64,000 nt of DNA. Source: an uncultured Chloroflexia bacterium (GTDB taxonomy: Bacteria > Chloroflexota > Limnocylindria > Limnocylindrales > CSP1-4). The notes under the pieces are model-generated. The model saw only the letters and a program-made list of their open reading frames with translations. It searched no databases and was not told the origin of the DNA. Of this stretch, positions 4,501 to 53,775 are shown piece by piece. The DNA is taken from the NCBI GenBank assembly GCA_963821235.1, contig CAWGCS010000001.1:510751-574750 (forward strand). The letters are read 5' to 3'. A program made the translations under genes and the position numbers. Numbering within the stretch: position 1 is the first letter of the stretch; each line of letters begins with the position of its first letter.

Positions 4501-5096
4501 GCGTCGATGCTCGTCGCATAGACGCGGCCGGCGCCGCCGTCGCTGCCCTCGTTCGCCGCGCCGCCCGCCGCATCCGGCGGATCGTCCTCGACGTATCTCG
4601 TGCTCGGCCCGTCGCGGACGATGAAGCGGTACCACAGGACGGTCGGGCGGGCGGAGGTCCGGATCGTCGCCTGCCAGTAGTCGTAGCCGTGCTCGCCCAG
4701 GGTGCGGTCGCTGGCGACGACGGACATCGGGACCAGAGCCTGGATGCTCTCCCCGGCGTCCCAGACCCGCGCGGTCGCGCCGGTCAGGTCGCCCGCGGTC
4801 GCCCGCAGGCGGAGCGTGACGGCCGTGCCGGCCGGCACGGCCCCGAAGGGGATGCGGTACGTGTCGCTGCGGCTGTCGTGGGCCAGACCGGCCTCGTCGA
4901 TGGCCCCGTCCGGGACGAGGGGGACGCGGTCGGCGACGGCGACCGGCCCGCCCGACGGAGAGGGCGACGGCGTCGGCGTCGGCCCCGGGCGCGTGAGCAC
5001 GAGCGCCACGCCGACCAGGGCGACGGCCGCAACGACCCCGGCGACGGCGAGCGGGCCCCGGCGAGCCGCCGGGCGGGGTTGGGTCGTCGGAGCCAT
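1524..5096 (-). CDS. membrane-anchored multidomain GH13 alpha-amylase/pullulanase-like enzyme with FN3 domains and a C-terminal starch-binding module
   Basis: Has an N-terminal signal anchor (LAVAGVVAAVALVGVALVL) followed by a Pro/Ser/Thr linker. GH13 catalytic regions are present: YQVFPDRFANGDP, VLYLNPIF, GIRVLLDGVFNH, GWRLDV, and DSHDT (conserved region IV). Two or three FN3-like modules follow (ITLAWDPVPAGDLYRY; RVELAWEPVNGAAGYEVWRS). The C-terminus is a CBM20/25-like starch-binding domain (IHIAGDFQGWDP...YKYTRGSWE). Start was moved to the internal ATG (MAPTTQP) because the 5' part of the ORF overlaps the upstream gene. Confidence 0.85.
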   Translation of the reverse strand: MAPTTQPRPAARRGPLAVAGVVAAVALVGVALVLTRPGPTPTPSPSPSGGPVAVADRVPLVPDGAIDEAGLAHDSRSDTYRIPFGAVPAGTAVTLRLRATAGDLTGATARVWDAGESIQALVPMSVVASDRTLGEHGYDYWQATIRTSARPTVLWYRFIVRDGPSTRYVEDDPPDAAGGAANEGSDGGAGRVYATSIDASWQIDVYRPDFTTPAWAHGAVVYQVFPDRFANGDPTNDPSPDARPGTTGAAVYRYGDVYGNPILKKAWDDLPEGYCRAYQGVACTESPLGRDFYGGDLAGITARLDDLAALGVTVLYLNPIFAAPSNHRYDTSSYEVIDPDLGTQADFERLVDEAKARGIRVLLDGVFNHVSSDSPWFDRERRYAQVGACEAAGSPYRAWFTFRAPKPNEPSPCAPSTTGGTDTYYVGWFGFDTIPEVVEQGAVYDLFTGPDGVVRRWLAAGTAGWRLDVMDNLSAGFMRRIREAAKATDPDALVLGEQWGDASAWLLGDEADSTMNYRFRRAVIGLVAGDTADLDGAIAGLAPSQFVERMRGVMEDYPAPAFEALLNLVDSHDTTRILWTLAPGRDDPAVKESSAGLAEAKAKLRLVSGLQLTWPGMASIYYGTEAGLTGHDDPDDRRPYPWDSIDTELRDWYRTLGQLRRDHEALRTGDLQFVHADDAAGTLAYLRRSPDEAAVVVLNLADQARTVAVDLADRLPVGTRLRDAIGGATTVAGPGGVTVQLPARGLAVLLTAPGTDLQAPGAPGALIATAATGRVELAWEPVNGAAGYEVWRSILAGGGYEVVGSAKAATFVDATIRNGTRYHYVVTARDAAGNAGARSPEADALAEVAITDARLEDEASLSQPLSAVAAGTPIRALVRSDVSAAAGTSIGLRAQLGVGPASSADPAADYAWSDMAFEADVDGADRLVGTVRPEALGTFSVVLRISTDGGLTWSYADRGGIVAGEGRPWAYRAEQALSLQATQGPDREPPPAPARPRVATVAGSSITLAWDPVPAGDLYRYAVLRSSSPGGPYEQIGLATDPTYTDDTIATGATYAYVVAAVDSSYNRSALSAEASVEAQTRQVAVTFTVSLPANTPAADTIHIAGDFQGWDPAATPMTRVDERTWTITLPFTEGDTPQYKYTRGSWEAVEKDAACGEIPNRTVTVTFGADGTQQVPDEVARWRDVDQCG

Positions 5097-43933: not shown

Positions 43934-44598
43934 GCGCCGGCCTCGGGCTCGCGGAGCTCGCGACGCTCGACGTGGGCCCGGGTGGCCTCGGCGAGGTCCT
44001 CGATCTCGGCGAGGAGCTCCCCGACCCGGCCGCGCATCCCGTCGGCGAGGCCCTCGTCGCCGAGCGAGGGGAGGTTGACGAGGACGTTCTCGGCGGCCCC
44101 GTGGGCGGAGGCCTCGGCGAGGCGCGAGGCGACGGCGAGGTCGCTGGCGGCGTTGAGGTTGCTGCGCCCCGCCAGCCCCTCCGACGCGCGGACCACGTCG
44201 CGGCACGCCTCGAGGGTCCGCAGGGGGGCCTCCGCGGCGACGCGGGCCGAGGCCCGGATGGCGGCCGCCCGGGCCACCCGCTCCCCGTCCGACTCGCGAG
44301 GCAGCTTGAGCGCGGCGGCGAACGCGGCGTAGGCGTCGGCGTCCTCGTCGGCCAGGGCAAGGAGCCGGGCCGCGAGCTCGCGACCCGCCGCGCCGTGACG
44401 AGCGTGGCTCGCCTCGTGCGCGGCGTACCTGGGGCGGCCCTCGGAGAGCGCCGCGACCATCGCGACGAGCGCGGCGCCGCACGAGGCGGCCACGGCCGAG
44501 GCCGCCCCTCCGCCGGGGCTGGGGGTCGCCGACGCGAGGCTGTCGATGAACCCGTCGAGGGTCATCGACCCGAAACGAGCCGGGGGTGTCTCGGACAT
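43930..44598 (-). CDS. formimidoyltetrahydrofolate cyclodeaminase (stand-alone FtcD cyclodeaminase domain)
   Basis: The N-terminus (TLDGFIDSLASATPSPGGGAASAVAASCGAALVAMVAAL) is the signature of the cyclodeaminase domain. The 839-aa ORF in the track is a 5' extension artefact. Confidence 0.85.
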   Translation of the reverse strand: MSETPPARFGSMTLDGFIDSLASATPSPGGGAASAVAASCGAALVAMVAALSEGRPRYAAHEASHARHGAAGRELAARLLALADEDADAYAAFAAALKLPRESDGERVARAAAIRASARVAAEAPLRTLEACRDVVRASEGLAGRSNLNAASDLAVASRLAEASAHGAAENVLVNLPSLGDEGLADGMRGRVGELLAEIEDLAEATRAHVERRELREPEAGA

Positions 44599-44891
44599 GG
44601 GCTCGATTGTATGAGGCGAGTGACCCACCGACAGAGCCGTCCCGCCCGGACGGCCGGGCCGCGGGAACCGGCCCTGGATGACGGGCGGCTGCGCAGGGTG
44701 CCCGGCGCGGAGGCCCGCTGCCGGCCGGTCTGGTGCGATGGGACCTGAGGTCCAGGACGTGGCCGGGCCCGAGGCGAGCGCGGTACCGGTCGCGTTCACC
44801 CCGGGCCCGAGGAGATGGCCCGCCGGGAGGACGGCGGGCCGTGGCGCCGGGCGGAGGTCCGGCGCGGTAGATGCGGGCGGGTCGCCTCGCC

Positions 44892-45164
44892 TCAGGCGGC
44901 CCGGGCGACGTCGGTGTCCAGGCCCTCGACCAGCCAGCGCCGGCCGCGATGCCGGAAGGTCAGGGCGAGGCGAACCTCGGGCGTCTCGACCTCGAACGTC
45001 GTGCGCGGGCCGATCTCCGTCGGGTAGGCGGCGGTCTCGCGGCGCACCGCCGCGATGGCGGTCACCTGGATCGTCCGTTCGCCCCAGCGGATCTCCCGGG
45101 GGCGGCCGGAGAGCCAGTCGGTCCGGACCCGGACTTCGACCGGCTCGACGCGGGTCATGGCCAT
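44892..45164 (-). CDS. small hypothetical protein with LexA (Cheo) boxes in its promoter
   Basis: About 90 aa (MAMTRVEPVEVRV...). Its only upstream intergenic region contains two GAAC-N4-GTTC boxes. Start was chosen at the ATG downstream of the boxes. No recognisable family. Confidence 0.4.
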   Translation of the reverse strand: MAMTRVEPVEVRVRTDWLSGRPREIRWGERTIQVTAIAAVRRETAAYPTEIGPRTTFEVETPEVRLALTFRHRGRRWLVEGLDTDVARAA

Positions 45165-45215
45165 CGATCTGCTCCTTCTCGGCGGCTCGTCGTCGCCCGG
45201 GGCACTCGGGAGACA

Positions 45216-45261
45216 GAACACCTGTTCGACTCAAACGACACTCTAGATCGAACGTCCGTTC
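45216..45261. promoter_or_regulatory. two LexA-binding Cheo boxes (CAGAACACCTGTTCGA and TCGAACGTCCGTTCGA)
   Basis: Two direct matches to the Gram-positive SOS box consensus (T)CGAAC-N4-GTTCG(A), spaced 34 bp apart, between the dinB 3' end and the small ORF 5' end. Confidence 0.6.
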
Positions 45262-45362
45262 GATGTCAAGACCCCCGCTCGACGGGGATGGCGGGAGCGT
45301 CGCCGGTGGCGGTGCCAGCTTGAATGGCACAGGCGTTCGACGGTCGCGGGGCTGCCAGCGAC

Positions 45363-46652
45363 TCAGGCGTCGGCGTCGTCGGCGCTGTCGGGGGGCGGAC
45401 GATCGCCGTCTGGCGCCGTCGGCGCCGGGCGGGCGCGTCCCACCCGCCGCGGCTGCAGCGGCTGCATCGGGTCGCGGCCGGCCGGGTCGGCGAGGCGGTC
45501 GCCGAGCAGGCGCGCCTTCGTGAGGGAGCGGCTGCCGTACTTGCGCCGGATCGCGTCCTGCGCCTCCGCCGCCCTGCGCCGTCGCGGATCCTCGCTCGCG
45601 AAGAGCCCCAGCTGGGCCGGCTCTCCGAGGCCGTGCGCGCCCACCCCCAGCAGGCGAATCTTGCGGCCTCGGACCTCCGGCCGGACCAGGTCGAGGGCCG
45701 TCCGGAAGATGGGCTCGGCAAGATCGGTCGGCTCGGCCAGGGTGCGCTGGCGGGTGACGGTGTGGAACGCGCTGTCGCGGACCTTCACCTGGACCGTCGA
45801 CGCCCGGACCTCGCCGGCGCGCAGGCGCGAGGCAACCCCCTCGGAGAGGGCGAGGAGCGTGCGCTCGATGACCTCCGGGTCGGAGGTGTCGAGGTCGAAG
45901 GTATGCTCGTGGCTGACCGACTTGGCGGCGATCTCCCCGACGACGGGCGACGGGTCGATCCCCAGGGCCCGCTCGTGGAGCGTCGCCCCGTGCGCCCCGA
46001 GCCGACGGACCAGCACGTCGACCGGGAGCGCCGCGAGGTCGCCGATCGTGGCCACTCCGTGCTCGGCGAGGACCAGCCGCGTCTGCTCGCCCACGCCCCA
46101 CAGGCGGCGGATGGGGAGCGGCGCCAGGAACGCCGCCTCCCGGCCGGGCGGCACGACGACGAGGCCGTCGGGCTTGCGCAGGTCGGAGGCCACCTTGGCG
46201 ACGAGCTTCGTGGTGGCCGCGCCGACGCTCGCCGTCAGGCCCACCTCGCCCCGGACGTCGGCCTTGATCCGGCGGGCGATCTCCTCCGGCGGGCCGAAGA
46301 GCGCCTCGCTGCCGGCCACGTCGAGGAAGGCCTCGTCGATCGAGACCTGCTCGAGGAGCGGGGTGAAGCGGCCGAGGATCTCCATGACCCGCCGGCTCTC
46401 GCGGCGGTACGACGCCCCGTCGACCGGCAGGAAGACCCCCTGCGGACACAGCGCGGCCGCCGTCCGCAGGGGCATCGCCGATCGCACGCCGAACGCCCGC
46501 GCCTCGTAGCTGGCGGCCGAGACGACGCCGCGGGCGCCCGGGTCGCCGCCGACGATCACGGGCCGGCCCCGCAGCTCCGGCCGGTCGCGCTGCTCGACCG
46601 CCGCGAAGAAGGCGTCGAGGTCGACGTGGAGGATCGTGGGGCTGCTTCGCAC
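45363..46652 (-). CDS. dinB: DNA polymerase IV (Y-family translesion polymerase)
   Basis: Catalytic motifs (ILHVDLDAFFAAVE, SIDEAFLDV), palm/fingers, and the little-finger domain. Start was set at the GTG (VRSSPTILHVD). Confidence 0.9.
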   Translation of the reverse strand: MRSSPTILHVDLDAFFAAVEQRDRPELRGRPVIVGGDPGARGVVSAASYEARAFGVRSAMPLRTAAALCPQGVFLPVDGASYRRESRRVMEILGRFTPLLEQVSIDEAFLDVAGSEALFGPPEEIARRIKADVRGEVGLTASVGAATTKLVAKVASDLRKPDGLVVVPPGREAAFLAPLPIRRLWGVGEQTRLVLAEHGVATIGDLAALPVDVLVRRLGAHGATLHERALGIDPSPVVGEIAAKSVSHEHTFDLDTSDPEVIERTLLALSEGVASRLRAGEVRASTVQVKVRDSAFHTVTRQRTLAEPTDLAEPIFRTALDLVRPEVRGRKIRLLGVGAHGLGEPAQLGLFASEDPRRRRAAEAQDAIRRKYGSRSLTKARLLGDRLADPAGRDPMQPLQPRRVGRARPAPTAPDGDRPPPDSADDADA

Positions 46653-46672: not shown

Positions 46673-48679
46673 GTGAGTCCCGCCGATAGCCCCCTCCGCG
46701 CCGCCCCGTCGCTCGTGGCGGGCCGCCCGCTCGAGGTCGGGGCGGTCGGCGCGATCGGCTTCCTGCTCGCCTGGTTCGCACCGCCCCTGGCGGTCGCCGT
46801 CGCCTGGCCGTTCCTCTTCTTCGTCCCTGGGTGGCTGCTGGTCAGCCGGGTCGTGCCGAGGCTCGGGCCGGCCGGTCGCCTCGGCGTCGGCGTCGTCACC
46901 TCGACGTTCGTGGCCGCCCACCTCGGGAACGTGGTCGGCCTGGCAGCCGGGGGCTTCGACCGGCCGGTCGCCTTCGCGGTGGCGGCGATCCTCGCGGTGG
47001 CCAGCCTCGTCCTCGCGGTCGTGCCGATCCCGGGCCTGGCCCGGCCGCCATCGCTCGATCCGCGGGACGGCCTCGCCGCCGTCCGCCGCGAGCCGGCGCC
47101 GTTCGCGCTCGCCGCGCTCGCGGCCCTCGGGGTGGGGGGAGTCCTGGCCGCGAACGCGTGGCACGAGATCCCGGGCGGCTGGGTCTCAGGCGGGTGGAAC
47201 TGGAGCGACTTCCTCGTCCACGTGGCGATCGGCCAGAGCATCGTCGAGGGCAACTTCCCGCCCCAGGTCCCCTACTTCGCGGGCGTCCCGCTGACCTACC
47301 ACTGGTTCGCCGACTTCCACGGCGCGATCGCGGCGACGGTCGCCGGCTCGCACGTGATCCCGGTCTTCATCGCCTCCAGCGCGCTCCTGGCGGGCACCCT
47401 GGCCCTCGTGGCCTGGGAGCTGGCCCTGCGCCTCTTCGGGAGCCGCCGCGCGGCCACGATCGCGACGCTCCTCGTCTTCCTGGCCGGCGGGATGGGCTGG
47501 CTCCGCCTCGTCCTCGACCTCGGGGCGGGCGACGGGACGCCCTGGGACCTCATCCGGACGCGGGCCTACGACAACAGCTGGGACGACGGCTGGCCGTACT
47601 TCAGGATCGCCTCGATCCTCGGCACCGGGCTGTTCCCCCACCGGGCCACCACCTTCGGGCTGCCGGGGCTCCTGGCGGTCCTGTTGCTGGTCCGGGTCTC
47701 CCTGGGCCGGCGCCCCGCCGGCACCGCCCTGGCCGGCGTCCTGGCCGCCCTCCTGGCGCCCTTCCACTTCTACTTCTTCCCGACGACCTACCTGCTGGTC
47801 GGGCTCTACGCCGTCGCCCACCGCGCCTGGCGCCGCCGGGGCTGGCTCCGCGACGCGGCCCTCTTCCTGGCGCCGATCGTGCTGGCCCTGCCGTTCGTCG
47901 TCGGCCCCGCCCTCCTCCAGCGGGATCGGGGCGCCATTCGCTTCGTCCTCGGCTGGGAGGAGGCCCGCATCGAGGACGGGCCGGCGGCCGTCCTCTTCTT
48001 CTACCTCACCAACATCGGGCTGCCGCTGGTCCTGGGGGTCGTCGCGCTGATCGCCAGCCGGCCACCCGGGCGGGCGTACCTGGCGGCCTGGGCGGTGGCC
48101 TTCTTCATGATCCCCAACCTCGTCATGGCCGGCGCCGTGGCCTTCGACATGAACAAGTACTTCCAGCTCATGTCGGTCGCCCTCGCTCTCCTCGGCGGGT
48201 GGCTGCTCCACCGGCGGCGGACCGCCGTCGTCGCGATCGTGATCGCCGCGACGGCCGTGTCACCCGTGCTCGTCGCGACCTGGCACCTCGTGTCGGAGAC
48301 GGTCGCCCTCAGCACGGGCCAGGAGAAGGCCGCGCGCTGGATCGAGCAGAACACGCCGCAGCTGGCGGTCTTCGTGACCGACGCCTACATCAACAGCCCG
48401 GCCGACTACGCCGGCCGCCTGCGGGTCACGACGTTCTCGACGTACGCCGCCAACCTCGGCTACGACCCGTGGCCACGCGAAGCTGCCGTCCAGGTGGCCT
48501 ACTGCGACGGCCCCGAGGCGGCGGCGGGCGTGATGGCCCAGTACGGCGCGACGTACGTCCTGTCCTCGGGCGGGCAGCCCGACTGTGGCGGGGGGCCGCT
48601 CACGGACTTCTCGGGAAGCCCGCTCTTCGAGACGGTCTACGACGCCGACGGCGTCCAGATCTGGCGGCTGCGCGGCTGA
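46673..48679 (+). CDS. large polytopic membrane protein, GT-C-like glycosyltransferase fold (hypothetical)
   Basis: 668 aa with about 12 or more TM helices, large loops, and a C-terminal soluble domain. The N-terminal loop motif (NWSDFLVHVAIGQSIVEGNFPPQVPYFAGVPLTYHWFADF) resembles the lipid-linked sugar transferase (GT-C / DUF2029-type) architecture. The assignment is tentative. Confidence 0.5.
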   Translation: MSPADSPLRAAPSLVAGRPLEVGAVGAIGFLLAWFAPPLAVAVAWPFLFFVPGWLLVSRVVPRLGPAGRLGVGVVTSTFVAAHLGNVVGLAAGGFDRPVAFAVAAILAVASLVLAVVPIPGLARPPSLDPRDGLAAVRREPAPFALAALAALGVGGVLAANAWHEIPGGWVSGGWNWSDFLVHVAIGQSIVEGNFPPQVPYFAGVPLTYHWFADFHGAIAATVAGSHVIPVFIASSALLAGTLALVAWELALRLFGSRRAATIATLLVFLAGGMGWLRLVLDLGAGDGTPWDLIRTRAYDNSWDDGWPYFRIASILGTGLFPHRATTFGLPGLLAVLLLVRVSLGRRPAGTALAGVLAALLAPFHFYFFPTTYLLVGLYAVAHRAWRRRGWLRDAALFLAPIVLALPFVVGPALLQRDRGAIRFVLGWEEARIEDGPAAVLFFYLTNIGLPLVLGVVALIASRPPGRAYLAAWAVAFFMIPNLVMAGAVAFDMNKYFQLMSVALALLGGWLLHRRRTAVVAIVIAATAVSPVLVATWHLVSETVALSTGQEKAARWIEQNTPQLAVFVTDAYINSPADYAGRLRVTTFSTYAANLGYDPWPREAAVQVAYCDGPEAAAGVMAQYGATYVLSSGGQPDCGGGPLTDFSGSPLFETVYDADGVQIWRLRG

Positions 48680-49776: not shown

Positions 49777-50196
49777 TCAGGCCCCGGGCGCGGCGGGCGG
49801 GCGGCTCTCGCCGCGGGCTGCGAGCGCCGCCTCGATCGCCGCCGCCAGGCGCTCGCCCGACGGCCGCCCGACGAGGGGGGTCACCCCGTGGAGGCCGGCC
49901 GTCTCCATCCAGGCCGGCTCCATGCCCGAGGCCACGAGGACGATGGGGACATCCGGGTGGATCTCGCGCATGCCTTCGATCAGGGCCTGGGCGCCGTCCG
50001 GCTCGCCGGTCACGAAGGCGTCGTAGACGAGCACGTCGGCGTCGGCCGCCAGGTCGCACTCGAGGCCGGAGAGGATCGGGCAGGAGGAGCCGATCGGGCC
50101 CAGGCACTGGCGGGCCTCGTAGCCCCGCCGGCGGAGGCTGTCCACCTCCTGGTCGGACAGGTCGATGTCGTGGTGGATGACGAGGACGCGGGTCAT
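49777..50196 (-). CDS. stand-alone response-regulator receiver-like domain protein
   Basis: 139 aa with a CheY-like pattern (MTRVLVIHHDIDL...DVLVYD...PIVLVASG). The phospho-acceptor Asp context is degenerate. The 632-aa ORF in the track is an artefact. Confidence 0.5.
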   Translation of the reverse strand: MTRVLVIHHDIDLSDQEVDSLRRRGYEARQCLGPIGSSCPILSGLECDLAADADVLVYDAFVTGEPDGAQALIEGMREIHPDVPIVLVASGMEPAWMETAGLHGVTPLVGRPSGERLAAAIEAALAARGESRPPAAPGA

Positions 50197-50290
50197 GACG
50201 CCACCTCTGCCGTGGAGCTTGGATTGCGGATGGTCGCCCGGACCGCGACCCGGCGCCAGTGCCGAACGTCCCCGCGGGCGCCCTTGACAT

Positions 50291-50306
50291 TCGAACGGGT
50301 GTTCTG
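50291..50306. promoter_or_regulatory. LexA (Cheo) box TCGAACGGGTGTTCTG upstream of lexA, overlapping a TTGACA -35-like hexamer
   Basis: GAAC-N4-GTTC match 35-50 bp upstream of the lexA GTG start, with TTGACAT directly adjacent at about 50284. This is the classic autoregulatory arrangement. Confidence 0.6.
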
Positions 50307-50340
50307 TACGCTGCTGCCAACGGCTCGGAAAGGAGCACGC

Positions 50341-50991
50341 GTGACCAGGCACGATGCCGAGCGCAAGCGCAGGATCCTCGACTACATCGCGGCGATGATC
50401 CGGGCCAACGGGGTTCCGCCCTCCGTCCGCGAGATCGCCCGCGCGGTCGGGCTCGCCTCCACGTCGGCCGTCCACCACCACCTGCGGGCCCTCGAGGAGG
50501 ACGGCTTCCTCGACCGAGGTGCTTCCCAGTCGCGGATGATCCGCCTGACGCCCAAGGCCGCCCTCCAGCTGAGCCTCTCGTCGGAGCTGACGCCGCAGTC
50601 GATGCCGGTCGAGGCCCACATGCTGCCGGTGATCGGCGAGATCGCGGCCGGCGGGCCCATCGAGGCATACGCCACGGCGGACGAGTACCGGGCCATCCCT
50701 GACATCCTCGCCCCGTCGGGCGACGCCTACCTCCTCCGCGTCCGCGGCGACTCGATGATCGAGGCGCTCATCGCGGACGGCGACTACGTCGTGATCCGGC
50801 CGCAGCAGACGGCCCGCAACGGCGACATCGTGGTGGCCCAGGTCGAGGAGAACGCGGTCACCCTGAAGCGCTTCTTCAAGGAGGATGGCCGGATCAGGCT
50901 CCAGCCGGCCAACCCGCAGTACCCGGCCCAGTTCTACGACGACGTCCGAATCCAGGGCAAGCTCATCGGGGTCATCCGCCGCCTCGACTGA
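50341..50991 (+). CDS. lexA: LexA repressor
   Basis: N-terminal wHTH (SVREIARAVGLASTSAVHHHLRALEEDGFL), the Ala-Gly cleavage site (EIAAGGPIEA), and the S24 peptidase Ser/Lys dyad (VRGDSMIEA...TLKRF). Confidence 0.9.
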   Translation: MTRHDAERKRRILDYIAAMIRANGVPPSVREIARAVGLASTSAVHHHLRALEEDGFLDRGASQSRMIRLTPKAALQLSLSSELTPQSMPVEAHMLPVIGEIAAGGPIEAYATADEYRAIPDILAPSGDAYLLRVRGDSMIEALIADGDYVVIRPQQTARNGDIVVAQVEENAVTLKRFFKEDGRIRLQPANPQYPAQFYDDVRIQGKLIGVIRRLD

Positions 50992-51000
50992 CGATCCGGC

Positions 51001-53775
51001 GTGATCGTCCACAGCCCGTCCACAGGATGGGCAATGGACTGCACGCTCGCGGGCGACCTGGGGGACCTCCTCGTGGACAACCCCCTCGCGCCGCGCGCCG
51101 CCAGCGGGCACGATGGCAGCGAACCCAGAGCCCCAGCCGGAGTGCCCGTGTCCGTCGATCGCCTTCCGCCGCAGAGCCTCGAGGCCGAGCAGTCGGTCCT
51201 GGGCGCCGTCCTCATCGATCGCGACGCCATCATCGAGGTGGCCGACATCCTCCGGCCGGCCGACTTCTACCGGCAGGCGAACGCCACCATCTACGGGGCC
51301 ATGCTCGAGCTGTGGGAGCGCCGCGAGCCGATCGACATCGTCACGGTCGCCGAGGCGCTCGAGCGCGCCGCCAGCCTCGACGGGATCGGGGGCCGGGCCT
51401 ACCTCTCGTCGCTCGCGGAGCAGACGCCGACCGCCGTCTTCGCGGCGCAGTACGCCCGCATCGTGGAGCGCAAGGCCGTCCTGCGGAACCTGATCGCGGC
51501 CGCCGGCCGGATCGCCGGCATCGGCTACGAGGACTCGCCGGAGGTCCAGGAGGCGATCGATCGCGCCGAGGCGGAGCTGTACGCCGTCTCGGAGCGGCGG
51601 CTCGCCGCCGGGTTCAGCCCGCTGCGCGAGCTGCTCCACGAGGCCTTCGATCGGCTCGACTACCTCCACACCCACCGCGGGGAGATCAGCGGCGTGCGGA
51701 CGGGCTTCCCCGATCTCGACGCCCTGACGACGGGCCTCCAGCCCTCGGACCTCGTGATCCTCGCGGCGCGGCCGTCGGTCGGCAAGACGAGCCTCGCCCT
51801 GAACATCGCCGAGTTCGCGGCGATCGGTAACTCCCCGCCGCGCTCGGTCGGCATCTTCAGCCTCGAGATGAGCAAGGAGCAGCTCGTCCTCCGGCTCCTC
51901 TCGTCGGTCGGCGGCATCGACAGCCAGCGGCTGCGGACCGGCTTCCTCGACGAGATGGATTTCGTCGGCGTCTCGAAGGCGATGACGGCGCTCTCCGAGG
52001 CTCCCATCTACATCGACGACACGCCGAACATCAGCACGATGGAGCTCCGCACGAAGGCTCGCCGGCTCCAGGCCGAGACCGGCCTCGATCTCGTGATCGT
52101 GGACTACCTCCAGCTCATGCAGTCCTCGACGACGTCGAAGGACGCCAACCGGGTCCAGGAGGTCTCCGAGATCAGCCGCGGCCTCAAGGCGCTGGCGCGC
52201 GAGCTGAAGGTCCCGGTGCTCGCCCTGTCGCAGCTCTCACGCCAGCCGGAAGCCCGCACCACGCCCGAGCCGCGCCTGTCCGACCTTCGGGAGTGCGTCA
52301 CAGGGGAAACGCCGGTCGTCCTCGCAGACGGTCGCCGCGTGCCGATCCGGGACCTCGTCGGCACCACGCCGTGGATCCTGGCATGGCACGAGGATGGCCG
52401 GCTCGCACCTGCCGAGTCGGACCTCATCTGGTCCGTCGGGCGGAAGTGCGTAGTCACCGTCCGTCTCGCGAGTGGCCGGATGATCCGGGCGACCCCGAAG
52501 CATCAGCTGTTGACCGGGTTCGGCTGGCGACGTGTCGAGGAGATGGAAGCCGGCGACCGCGTCGCGTTGGCACGGCCACTCCCGGAGCCGCTAGAGGCGG
52601 AGCGGTGGCCCGACCAGCACGTGGTGCTGCTCGGCCACCTCGTCGGGGACGGCAGCTACCTCTCCAATCGACCGATGCGCTACACGACGGCCAGCGAGGC
52701 CAACTCCGCGGCGGTGGCGAGCGCAGCCACCTCGGCGTTCGGCGCGAACGTGACGCGAATGGCTGGCCGGGGGAGCTGGCACCAACTCCTGATCTCGGGC
52801 AACGGGAATCGATGGCACCCGGCCGGCGTGAACAAGTGGCTTCGGGACCTTGGGGTCTTCGGGCAGCGCTCGCCTGAGAAGCGCCTGCCGGAGTCGGTCT
52901 TCCGCCTCCGGAACGAGCAGCTCGTGCTGCTGCTCCGCCATCTCTGGGCCACCGATGGCACGATTTGCGCAGCGCCCGTCGGATCGCGCACGACGCACAA
53001 GGTGATGTACTCCACGAGCAGTCCCGGCCTGGCCGCCGACGTTGCCGCGGCACTCCTGCGCCTCGGGATCGTCGCCCGCATCAAGACGGCGACGAAGGCC
53101 GGTTACCGGCCTAGCTACCACGTCAACGTGTCCGGCGCGGCCGACCAGCACGCGTTCCTTGAACTCGTCGGCGGGTTCGGGCCGCGCGCGCCACAGGCTG
53201 AGCGGCTGGCCGCGGCACTCGCGGCCATTCGACCGAACACTAACGTGGACACCCTCCCGGCGGCCTTCTTCAACCGAGTCCGCGACAGGGCAGAGGAGCT
53301 CGGACTGTCGATGCGCAAGATCGCTGCCCTGCGCGAGACCGCGTACGCGGGATCTGCCCACACCGCCTTCCGGCCGTCGCGAGCCGTCGCCGCCGACTAC
53401 GCGACTCTGCTCGATGATCCGGATCTCGATCGCATGATCAATGAGCCGCTCTTCTGGGATCGGGTGGTCGCAATCGAGCCGGCGGGGATCGAGGAGGTCT
53501 TCGACCTGACTGTTCCGGGCCCCTCCAGCTGGCTTGCCGATGGCTTGGTGAGCCATAACTCGGGCGCGCTTGAGCAGGATGCGGACCTCGTCGTCTTCCT
53601 GTGGCGCGAGAAGGAGCGGGGATCCGAGGACCACGACGCCGATGGCGAGGTGGTGAAGCTGCGGCTGGCAAAGCACCGCAACGGCCCGACCGGCGAGATC
53701 GACCTCTGGTTCAAGAAGACCCAGACGCGCTTCGTGAGCTACGCCGGCGAGCGCTTCAGCGGCGCCGCGCCGTAG
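51001..53775 (+). CDS. dnaB: replicative DNA helicase DnaB, interrupted by an intein
   Basis: DnaB N-domain (QSLEAEQSVLGAVLID), Walker A (AARPSVGKTSLALNIA), Walker B (DLVIVDYLQLM), and the RecA-like C-domain. The conserved DLRE|SGALEQDADLV motif is split by a 422-aa insertion. The N-terminal start is uncertain: GTG at 51001 or ATG at 51034. Confidence 0.9.
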   Translation: MIVHSPSTGWAMDCTLAGDLGDLLVDNPLAPRAASGHDGSEPRAPAGVPVSVDRLPPQSLEAEQSVLGAVLIDRDAIIEVADILRPADFYRQANATIYGAMLELWERREPIDIVTVAEALERAASLDGIGGRAYLSSLAEQTPTAVFAAQYARIVERKAVLRNLIAAAGRIAGIGYEDSPEVQEAIDRAEAELYAVSERRLAAGFSPLRELLHEAFDRLDYLHTHRGEISGVRTGFPDLDALTTGLQPSDLVILAARPSVGKTSLALNIAEFAAIGNSPPRSVGIFSLEMSKEQLVLRLLSSVGGIDSQRLRTGFLDEMDFVGVSKAMTALSEAPIYIDDTPNISTMELRTKARRLQAETGLDLVIVDYLQLMQSSTTSKDANRVQEVSEISRGLKALARELKVPVLALSQLSRQPEARTTPEPRLSDLRECVTGETPVVLADGRRVPIRDLVGTTPWILAWHEDGRLAPAESDLIWSVGRKCVVTVRLASGRMIRATPKHQLLTGFGWRRVEEMEAGDRVALARPLPEPLEAERWPDQHVVLLGHLVGDGSYLSNRPMRYTTASEANSAAVASAATSAFGANVTRMAGRGSWHQLLISGNGNRWHPAGVNKWLRDLGVFGQRSPEKRLPESVFRLRNEQLVLLLRHLWATDGTICAAPVGSRTTHKVMYSTSSPGLAADVAAALLRLGIVARIKTATKAGYRPSYHVNVSGAADQHAFLELVGGFGPRAPQAERLAAALAAIRPNTNVDTLPAAFFNRVRDRAEELGLSMRKIAALRETAYAGSAHTAFRPSRAVAADYATLLDDPDLDRMINEPLFWDRVVAIEPAGIEEVFDLTVPGPSSWLADGLVSHNSGALEQDADLVVFLWREKERGSEDHDADGEVVKLRLAKHRNGPTGEIDLWFKKTQTRFVSYAGERFSGAAP
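52294..53559 (+). other. DnaB intein (422 aa) with embedded LAGLIDADG homing-endonuclease domain
   Basis: Begins with Cys1 (CVTGETPVVLADG, block A), carries block B (TPKHQLLT), LAGLIDADG motifs (LLGHLVGDGSY and LLRHLWATDGTI), and ends with VSHN followed by the Ser +1 extein nucleophile. It is inserted in the DnaB H4/RESG site. Confidence 0.85.

Follow-up and report, generated by a model that had tools for sequence, protein, structure and literature searches.

This locus raises the question of which gene is controlled by a pair of perfect LexA boxes lying beside dinB, and what the product of that gene might do. The stretch of Chloroflexota DNA that was analysed (64,000 nucleotides, hereafter the window) had been described in a first-pass annotation as holding two GAAC-N4-GTTC boxes 34 bp apart upstream of a small ORF, one of them a perfect palindrome, and the pair was proposed to serve this ORF rather than the polymerase. 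GAAC-N4-GTTC has been established by experiment as the motif that LexA recognises in Firmicutes and Actinobacteria, and variants of it are reported from Chloroflexi (PMC4951493). Both boxes were confirmed in the sequence at the coordinates given below, the palindrome being the 16-mer of box 1. In the direction of transcription, the features of the locus are as follows.

45363-46652, minus strand: dinB, encoding a Y-family DNA polymerase IV (Pfam IMS, IMS_C and IMS_HHH), likely GTG start at 46652
45311-45329, minus strand: upstream inverted repeat GTGCCA-N7-TGGCAC, ~40 bp 5' of the -35 hexamer
45264-45269, minus strand: -35 hexamer TTGACA, from the promoter scan and relatives
45248-45263, minus strand: LexA box 1, a 16-nt perfect palindrome TCGAACGTCCGTTCGA, core GAACGTCCGTTC at 45250-45261
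45240-45245, minus strand: -10 hexamer TAGAGT, from the promoter scan; TAnnnT is kept in 82 of 86 relatives
45214-45229, minus strand: LexA box 2, reading TCGAACAGGTGTTCTG, core 45216-45227 (GAACACCTGTTC), at predicted positions of about +5 to +20
45191-45215, minus strand: possible 5'-UTR stem-loop UGUC-CCCG-(AGUGCCC)-CGGG-GACG, with a conserved GUGCCC loop motif
45172-45177, minus strand: Shine-Dalgarno sequence AAGGAG, 7 nt ahead of the ATG, from the sequence
44892-45164, minus strand: gene of the 90-aa protein, ATG at 45164, stop codon 44892-44894

The small gene immediately follows dinB and shares its strand, and both boxes sit between the dinB stop codon and the start of the small ORF, their cores starting 34 bp apart with 22 bp from edge to edge. 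A consensus scan of positions 44500-45500 found a single sigma-70-type promoter on the minus strand, TTGACA-18-TAGAGT, which agrees with the consensus at 10 of 12 positions (0.0 such sites were expected in the scanned region). Box 1 occupies 16 of the 18 nt between the -35 and -10 hexamers, while the core of box 2 begins about 11-12 nt past the -10 hexamer, transcription being predicted to start at ~45233.

Perfect boxes are rare in the window. Three GAAC-N4-GTTC sites were found against 0.41 expected, and at least three occurred in none of 100 dinucleotide-preserving shuffles of the window; the motif with one mismatch was not above chance (14 found, 15.5 expected). Two of the three perfect sites are those at the small gene, and the third (50293-50304) lies in the promoter of lexA.

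50284-50991, plus strand: lexA and its promoter, GTG start at 50341 (Pfam LexA_DNA_bind and Peptidase_S24)

The lexA promoter reads TTGACA (50284-50289)-T-TCGAACGGGTGTTCTG (50291-50306)-TACGCT (50307-50312), with its single box in the spacer. It is 5 kb from the small gene, with dinB, a GT-C membrane-protein gene, rplI and a DUF1232 gene between. Between lexA and the DUF1232-rplI pair, a 139-aa ORF (49777-50196, minus strand) is divergent from lexA and starts ~95 bp from the lexA box; it matches no Pfam family, and an assignment as a response-regulator receiver was left without Pfam support. Beyond lexA, dnaB (51001-53775) owes its length of 924 aa to an intein that contains a LAGLIDADG homing-endonuclease domain (Pfam Intein_splicing, LAGLIDADG_3).

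Although the small ORF had been labelled an orphan, hundreds of homologues were found. A homologue search returned 128 clusters (57-89% identity, 86-93 aa), all unnamed or annotated as hypothetical and all from metagenome-assembled genomes (MAGs) of Chloroflexi, and a profile built from diverged members extended this to 876 clusters. When 1.84 billion representatives were searched exhaustively with a profile, only 162 clusters at 50% identity came up, so the family is narrow. In a collection with one genome per species, 397 stretches encode a relative, and the relatives that carry names belong mostly to Candidatus Limnocylindria or Limnocylindrales. Against close relatives, dN was ~0.05-0.08 and dS ~0.38-0.53 (Nei-Gojobori), a dN/dS of about 0.1-0.2, which indicates that the small ORF is a real gene under purifying selection. 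No paralogue was found in the window. One MAG contig (L024) carries two tail-to-tail copies of the small gene (335-607 and 824-1096) as an inverted duplication next to dinB, which is either real or an assembly artefact.

The arrangement of boxes and promoter is shared by these relatives. Two perfect boxes stand upstream of the small gene in all 80 of the best related loci, with starts 29-36 bp apart (mode 34), and dinB, the small gene, FTCD_C, folD and fhs follow one another in each of these 80 loci. Across 955 kb of related DNA, 212 perfect boxes were counted: 181 at the small gene, 28 at lexA and 3 elsewhere. The parsed promoters of relatives have a fixed geometry, with a -35 hexamer TTGAC[AG], a spacer of 17-18 nt that contains box 1, a -10 hexamer TAnnnT and, in 73 of 82, a box 2 core 11-13 nt past the -10 hexamer. 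The two-box promoter is kept in diverged subfamilies of ~40-60% protein identity (L081-84, L091, L093-96). In two further diverged loci (L085, L086) box 1 has 1-2 mismatches and box 2 is perfect; the lone exception without boxes is a diverged member on a 1.2-kb contig (L090). Every related genome examined with enough upstream sequence, that one short contig apart, keeps the arrangement, and we therefore regard the small gene as a DNA-damage-response gene that is almost certainly real and has not been described before.

The proposal that the operator pair controls the small ORF and not dinB is supported by the overlap and orientation of the promoter, the same motif at lexA, the 80 related loci and the diverged subfamilies. 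It is very improbable that the boxes are not LexA operators of this gene, whether through chance, another regulator or service to the other strand. In favour of such a view it can be said that LexA action on the small gene is something that we infer, and that the second conserved repeat upstream, GTGnCA...TGnCAC, suggests that another factor may act too. Against it stand a chance expectation of just 0.41 perfect sites per 64 kb, the conservation of both boxes in 80 of 80 loci at fixed distances from the -35 and -10 hexamers, and the presence of the same motif in lexA promoters. In addition, the promoter faces the ORF, and the opposite strand there holds only the antisense 3' end of dinB. The first-pass annotation had allowed for boxes serving a transcript on that strand beside an ORF that relatives lack; the ORF is conserved, and the orientation of the promoter excludes such a transcript.

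Reading the two boxes as LexA operators of the small gene, we infer from the promoter anatomy and from the established biology of LexA that it binds there and that damage induces transcription. It is highly probable that two LexA dimers occlude the promoter and start region and that damage frees a strong promoter. In undamaged cells the two dimers would block both RNA polymerase binding and initiation, and would probably also stop read-through from dinB. Upon DNA damage, RecA-stimulated self-cleavage of LexA would free the promoter, and an mRNA with a strong ribosome-binding site would give a burst of a 90-aa soluble, all-beta protein. Its terminal Ala-Ala would then probably lead to ClpXP-type degradation, so that the pulse would be over once LexA returns.

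The leader itself shows further conservation. The A/GAAGGAG Shine-Dalgarno sequence is nearly invariant across 46 aligned 5' UTRs, and a hairpin just past box 2 was predicted in most of these UTRs of relatives, with 74% of positions paired against 26-55% in shifted controls; covariation of this hairpin was not significant over the 46 UTRs, its score being equal to that of shuffles. An alternative RNAalifold pairing joins UGCC with the GGCA of AUG-GCA. At the other end of the gene, no conserved terminator was found 3' of the stop codon. A perfect 9-bp GC hairpin lies 51 nt past it (44818-44841, minus strand, GGCCCGCCG-TCCTCC-CGGCGGGCC); it has no T-tract, and its position is not kept among relatives.

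Upstream of the promoter, the inverted repeat takes the form GTGnCA...TGnCAC in the clade of 89-90-aa proteins, with variable spacing. It is not present in the deep clade with the order lexA-dinB-small gene, and locus L093 has four copies (about 4840-4885) near the small-gene promoter despite an ORF between that promoter and dinB. Because the repeat thus accompanies the small-gene promoter and not dinB, a role as dinB terminator was rejected; a second regulator may bind there. In the window, a one-mismatch LexA-like box (45327-45338, minus strand, GAACGCCTGTGC preceded by TC) overlaps the left arm of the repeat and is limited to the window genome and its closest relatives (L001, L002, L010).

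The absence of a box at dinB requires a distinction between clades. The likely GTG start of dinB at 46652, taken from the sequence, is ~20 bp from the divergent membrane-protein gene that starts at 46673, and no LexA box with up to one mismatch was found near it in the window genome. The earlier statement that dinB has a spacer of about 20 bp and no box therefore holds for the window genome; it does not extend to the sister clade, where dinB lies inside what is probably a LexA-boxed lexA-dinB operon. In this deep sister clade (L081-L084; positions 5985-8270 in L081) the order lexA-dinB-small gene occurs on one strand, with lexA and dinB ~40 bp apart behind a promoter that has a single LexA box. 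The two genes probably form an operon, and since the promoter of lexA has one box, dinB is probably SOS-controlled there. In this clade the small gene, which lies within 1.3 kb of lexA, still has two boxes in a promoter of its own and is followed by a convergent formyltransferase gene. We take the lexA-dinB-small gene cluster as ancestral and the operator of dinB as lost in the clade of the window.

Adjacency to dinB is the most persistent feature of the neighbourhood among the loci compared: it persists while lexA, the GT-C membrane-protein gene and the formyltransferase gene shift position around it. In all related loci with enough flank dinB adjoins the small gene, with the exception of two from one subfamily (L093 and L094) in which a 153-aa ORF on the opposite strand (4257-4718 in L093, 2615-3076 in L094) is inserted between them. 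This ORF has an N-terminal hydrophobic stretch and no Pfam hit. However, the region of rplI, lexA, dinB, FTCD_C, folD and fhs is syntenic in the class, and the adjacency may thus be inherited rather than functional.

The product of the small gene begins MAMTRVEP. Its AlphaFold2 model, built on a 39-sequence alignment, is confident (pLDDT 88.9, pTM 0.79) and predicts an all-beta fold of seven strands with a short C-terminal helix. The protein is predicted to be soluble, no membrane segment being found: the maximum Kyte-Doolittle value over 19 residues was 0.26 for the window protein and 1.35 among 64 members. The window protein is basic (pI 10.9). Net charge spans -5 to +9 across the family, and this variation weakens an argument for nucleic-acid binding.

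Database comparisons placed the protein in no characterised family. The window protein had no match in Pfam (E up to 0.1), NCBIfam, PHROGs or PADLOC, and comparison of family members (39 or 26) with profile libraries gave only a sub-threshold match to DUF6504 (PF20114), itself an uncharacterised family. This match was made by two of the 26 diverged members and not by the window protein; one of them, P0147, scored 22.3 bits (E 1.7e-4, model positions 24-100 of 103), below the Pfam gathering threshold of 24.2 bits. A homologue search with the DUF6504-matching member returned just further members in a dinB context, and a literature search on DUF6504 found no paper. A sequence-profile search found no relative in the PDB. 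Foldseek matches were weak, the best having an E of 0.58 against the PDB and, against BFVD, an E of 0.024 and a TM of 0.62 to an uncharacterised siphovirus protein; no relatives of the small protein were found on viral contigs.

A C-terminal Ala-Ala is present in 229 of 253 full-length members, and the tail that precedes it varies in length and sequence. A carboxy-terminal -AA resembles the ssrA tag and the ClpX signal that is exposed on cleaved LexA. By this analogy, the conserved Ala-Ala probably marks the small protein for ClpXP-type degradation: regulated proteolysis is suggested by the conservation of the two residues, by their likeness to ssrA and LexA, and by the precedent of SOS proteins such as RecN, which are ClpXP substrates (PMC10165496).

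What the protein does can be stated only tentatively. It is possible, and well short of probable, that it acts with or on the neighbouring DinB (Pol IV), a role hinted at by the persistent adjacency, the cluster of lexA, dinB and small gene, the lost operator of dinB and known cases of small LexA-controlled partners of Y-family polymerases. If so, translesion synthesis would come under SOS control where dinB has no operator of its own. The more specific form of this proposal, that the small protein is a structurally unprecedented, SOS-induced and short-lived subunit or regulator of Pol IV, exerting post-translational damage control in lineages where dinB has lost its operator, and so serving a DinB-type polymerase in the way that UmuD or ImuA serves others, we regard as somewhat less likely again. 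Against a Pol IV role, the small gene is positioned behind the polymerase gene and has a separate promoter, which sets it apart from umuD-umuC and imuA-imuB, and the ORF of L093 and L094 separates it from dinB. No homology to UmuD/Peptidase_S24, YolD or ImuA was found in the window protein (E up to 0.1) or in the 26 diverged members (E up to 10), and no clamp-binding motif was found in the small protein. The first-pass suggestion of a mutasome accessory factor has the conserved adjacency to dinB in its favour but no homology to UmuD or YolD. Within DinB itself, the 3' part of the gene (45363-45600) encodes an internal clamp-binding-like motif, QLGLF, followed by a tail of ~75 aa (…AIRRKYGSRSLTKARLLG…DPMQPLQPRRVGR) that is conserved in relatives too. 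This tail could be a partner-binding region.

A different function, as an SOS checkpoint protein, must be weighed against the same evidence. The product would then hold up cell division or replication as a cytosolic inhibitor, synthesised in a pulse once damage occurs and afterwards removed by proteolysis, with an outcome like that of SulA but unrelated to it. Repression by two operators and a putative degradation tag would suit a product that is harmful at the wrong time. As a rule, SOS division inhibitors are small proteins specific to a lineage, unrelated from one phylum to the next, and encoded near lexA (PMC6851548); the small gene of the deep clade is within 1.3 kb of lexA, and no other LexA-boxed candidate for an inhibitor was seen in the flanks. 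On the other hand, all characterised inhibitors of the Gram-positive type span the membrane once, with an extracellular C-terminus, and most of them contain a LysM domain (PMC6851548), and the family has neither such a segment nor the domain; its constant neighbour is dinB rather than lexA, and the small gene is not divergent from lexA. An inhibitor of the YneA/ChiZ/SosA type, which had been suggested for this ORF, is not supported in view of the membrane segment, the LysM domain and the orientation. The likewise suggested analogy to SulA finds no basis in sequence, as searches of Pfam and NCBIfam (E up to 0.1-1) gave no match. We consider a checkpoint function a rather unlikely explanation on balance.

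Another kind of SOS effector, such as a growth-arresting toxin or a protein that modulates RecA or LexA as DinI or RecX does, seems unlikely. Very tight repression, the small size, a fold without assignment and a best structural match to an uncharacterised phage protein (E 0.024, TM 0.62) would each be consistent with it. E. coli has SOS-induced small genes downstream of dinB, and the position of the gene is comparable to that of yafNOP. For a toxin, however, neither an antitoxin gene as partner nor an antisense feature was seen, and there was no match to PADLOC defence or toxin models, phage families or viral contigs; for a modulator, no DinI or RecX homology was found in Pfam or NCBIfam. Returning to the reading that we prefer, namely that the small gene is a true SOS gene of Limnocylindria with the mechanism proposed above and a role with DinB, we give it a probability of roughly 0.55.

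Limnocylindria are abundant soil and freshwater bacteria, most of them uncultured, and the SOS response of Chloroflexota has hardly been studied; a literature search linking Limnocylindria with LexA found no paper. Within the sequence examined, the small gene has the most LexA operators, with two perfect boxes against one at lexA. It therefore offers a defined target, which may prove to be the DNA-damage checkpoint of the lineage or a new mode of Pol IV control. The conserved promoter could also guide the design of a damage-inducible reporter, and the 210-odd sites would provide a clean LexA motif for regulon prediction in Limnocylindria. LexA-repressed, lineage-specific small SOS genes are already well known as a kind; the protein family and its fold are not.

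Several known systems come close to the small gene. A small gene beside a Y-family polymerase under LexA control is likewise found in umuD-umuC, in yqjW of B. subtilis with its small neighbour, and in YolD-UvrX, and tandem LexA sites have been reported for the B. subtilis yqjW-yqzH operon (PMC4951493). In contrast to these polymerase-partner systems, the small gene follows the polymerase gene and has a separate promoter, instead of preceding it in a shared transcript, and the polymerase is of the DinB type and has no box in the window genome.

A second group comprises YneA, ChiZ, DivS and SosA, which are small, lineage-restricted, LexA-repressed, encoded near lexA and removed by proteolysis (PMC6851548); the small protein differs from them in being soluble and, in its model, all-beta, with no transmembrane segment or LysM domain. 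SulA, which is cytosolic, SOS-induced, strongly repressed by LexA and unstable, may be likened to it in these respects. Yet SulA has an alpha/beta fold, whereas the small protein is modelled as all-beta and is half the size, and its putative degradation signal is the C-terminal Ala-Ala, ClpXP-like rather than Lon-dependent. The likeness to the ClpXP substrates RecN and the N-terminal fragment of LexA extends to the two terminal residues only. Finally, the small-gene promoter resembles the multi-operator SOS promoters of E. coli lexA, recN, ydjM and the colicin genes, and two LexA sites per promoter give tighter, probably cooperative repression (PMC4951493). Its boxes differ from the E. coli examples in being 22 bp apart, one in the spacer and one at the start, rather than abutting or overlapping.
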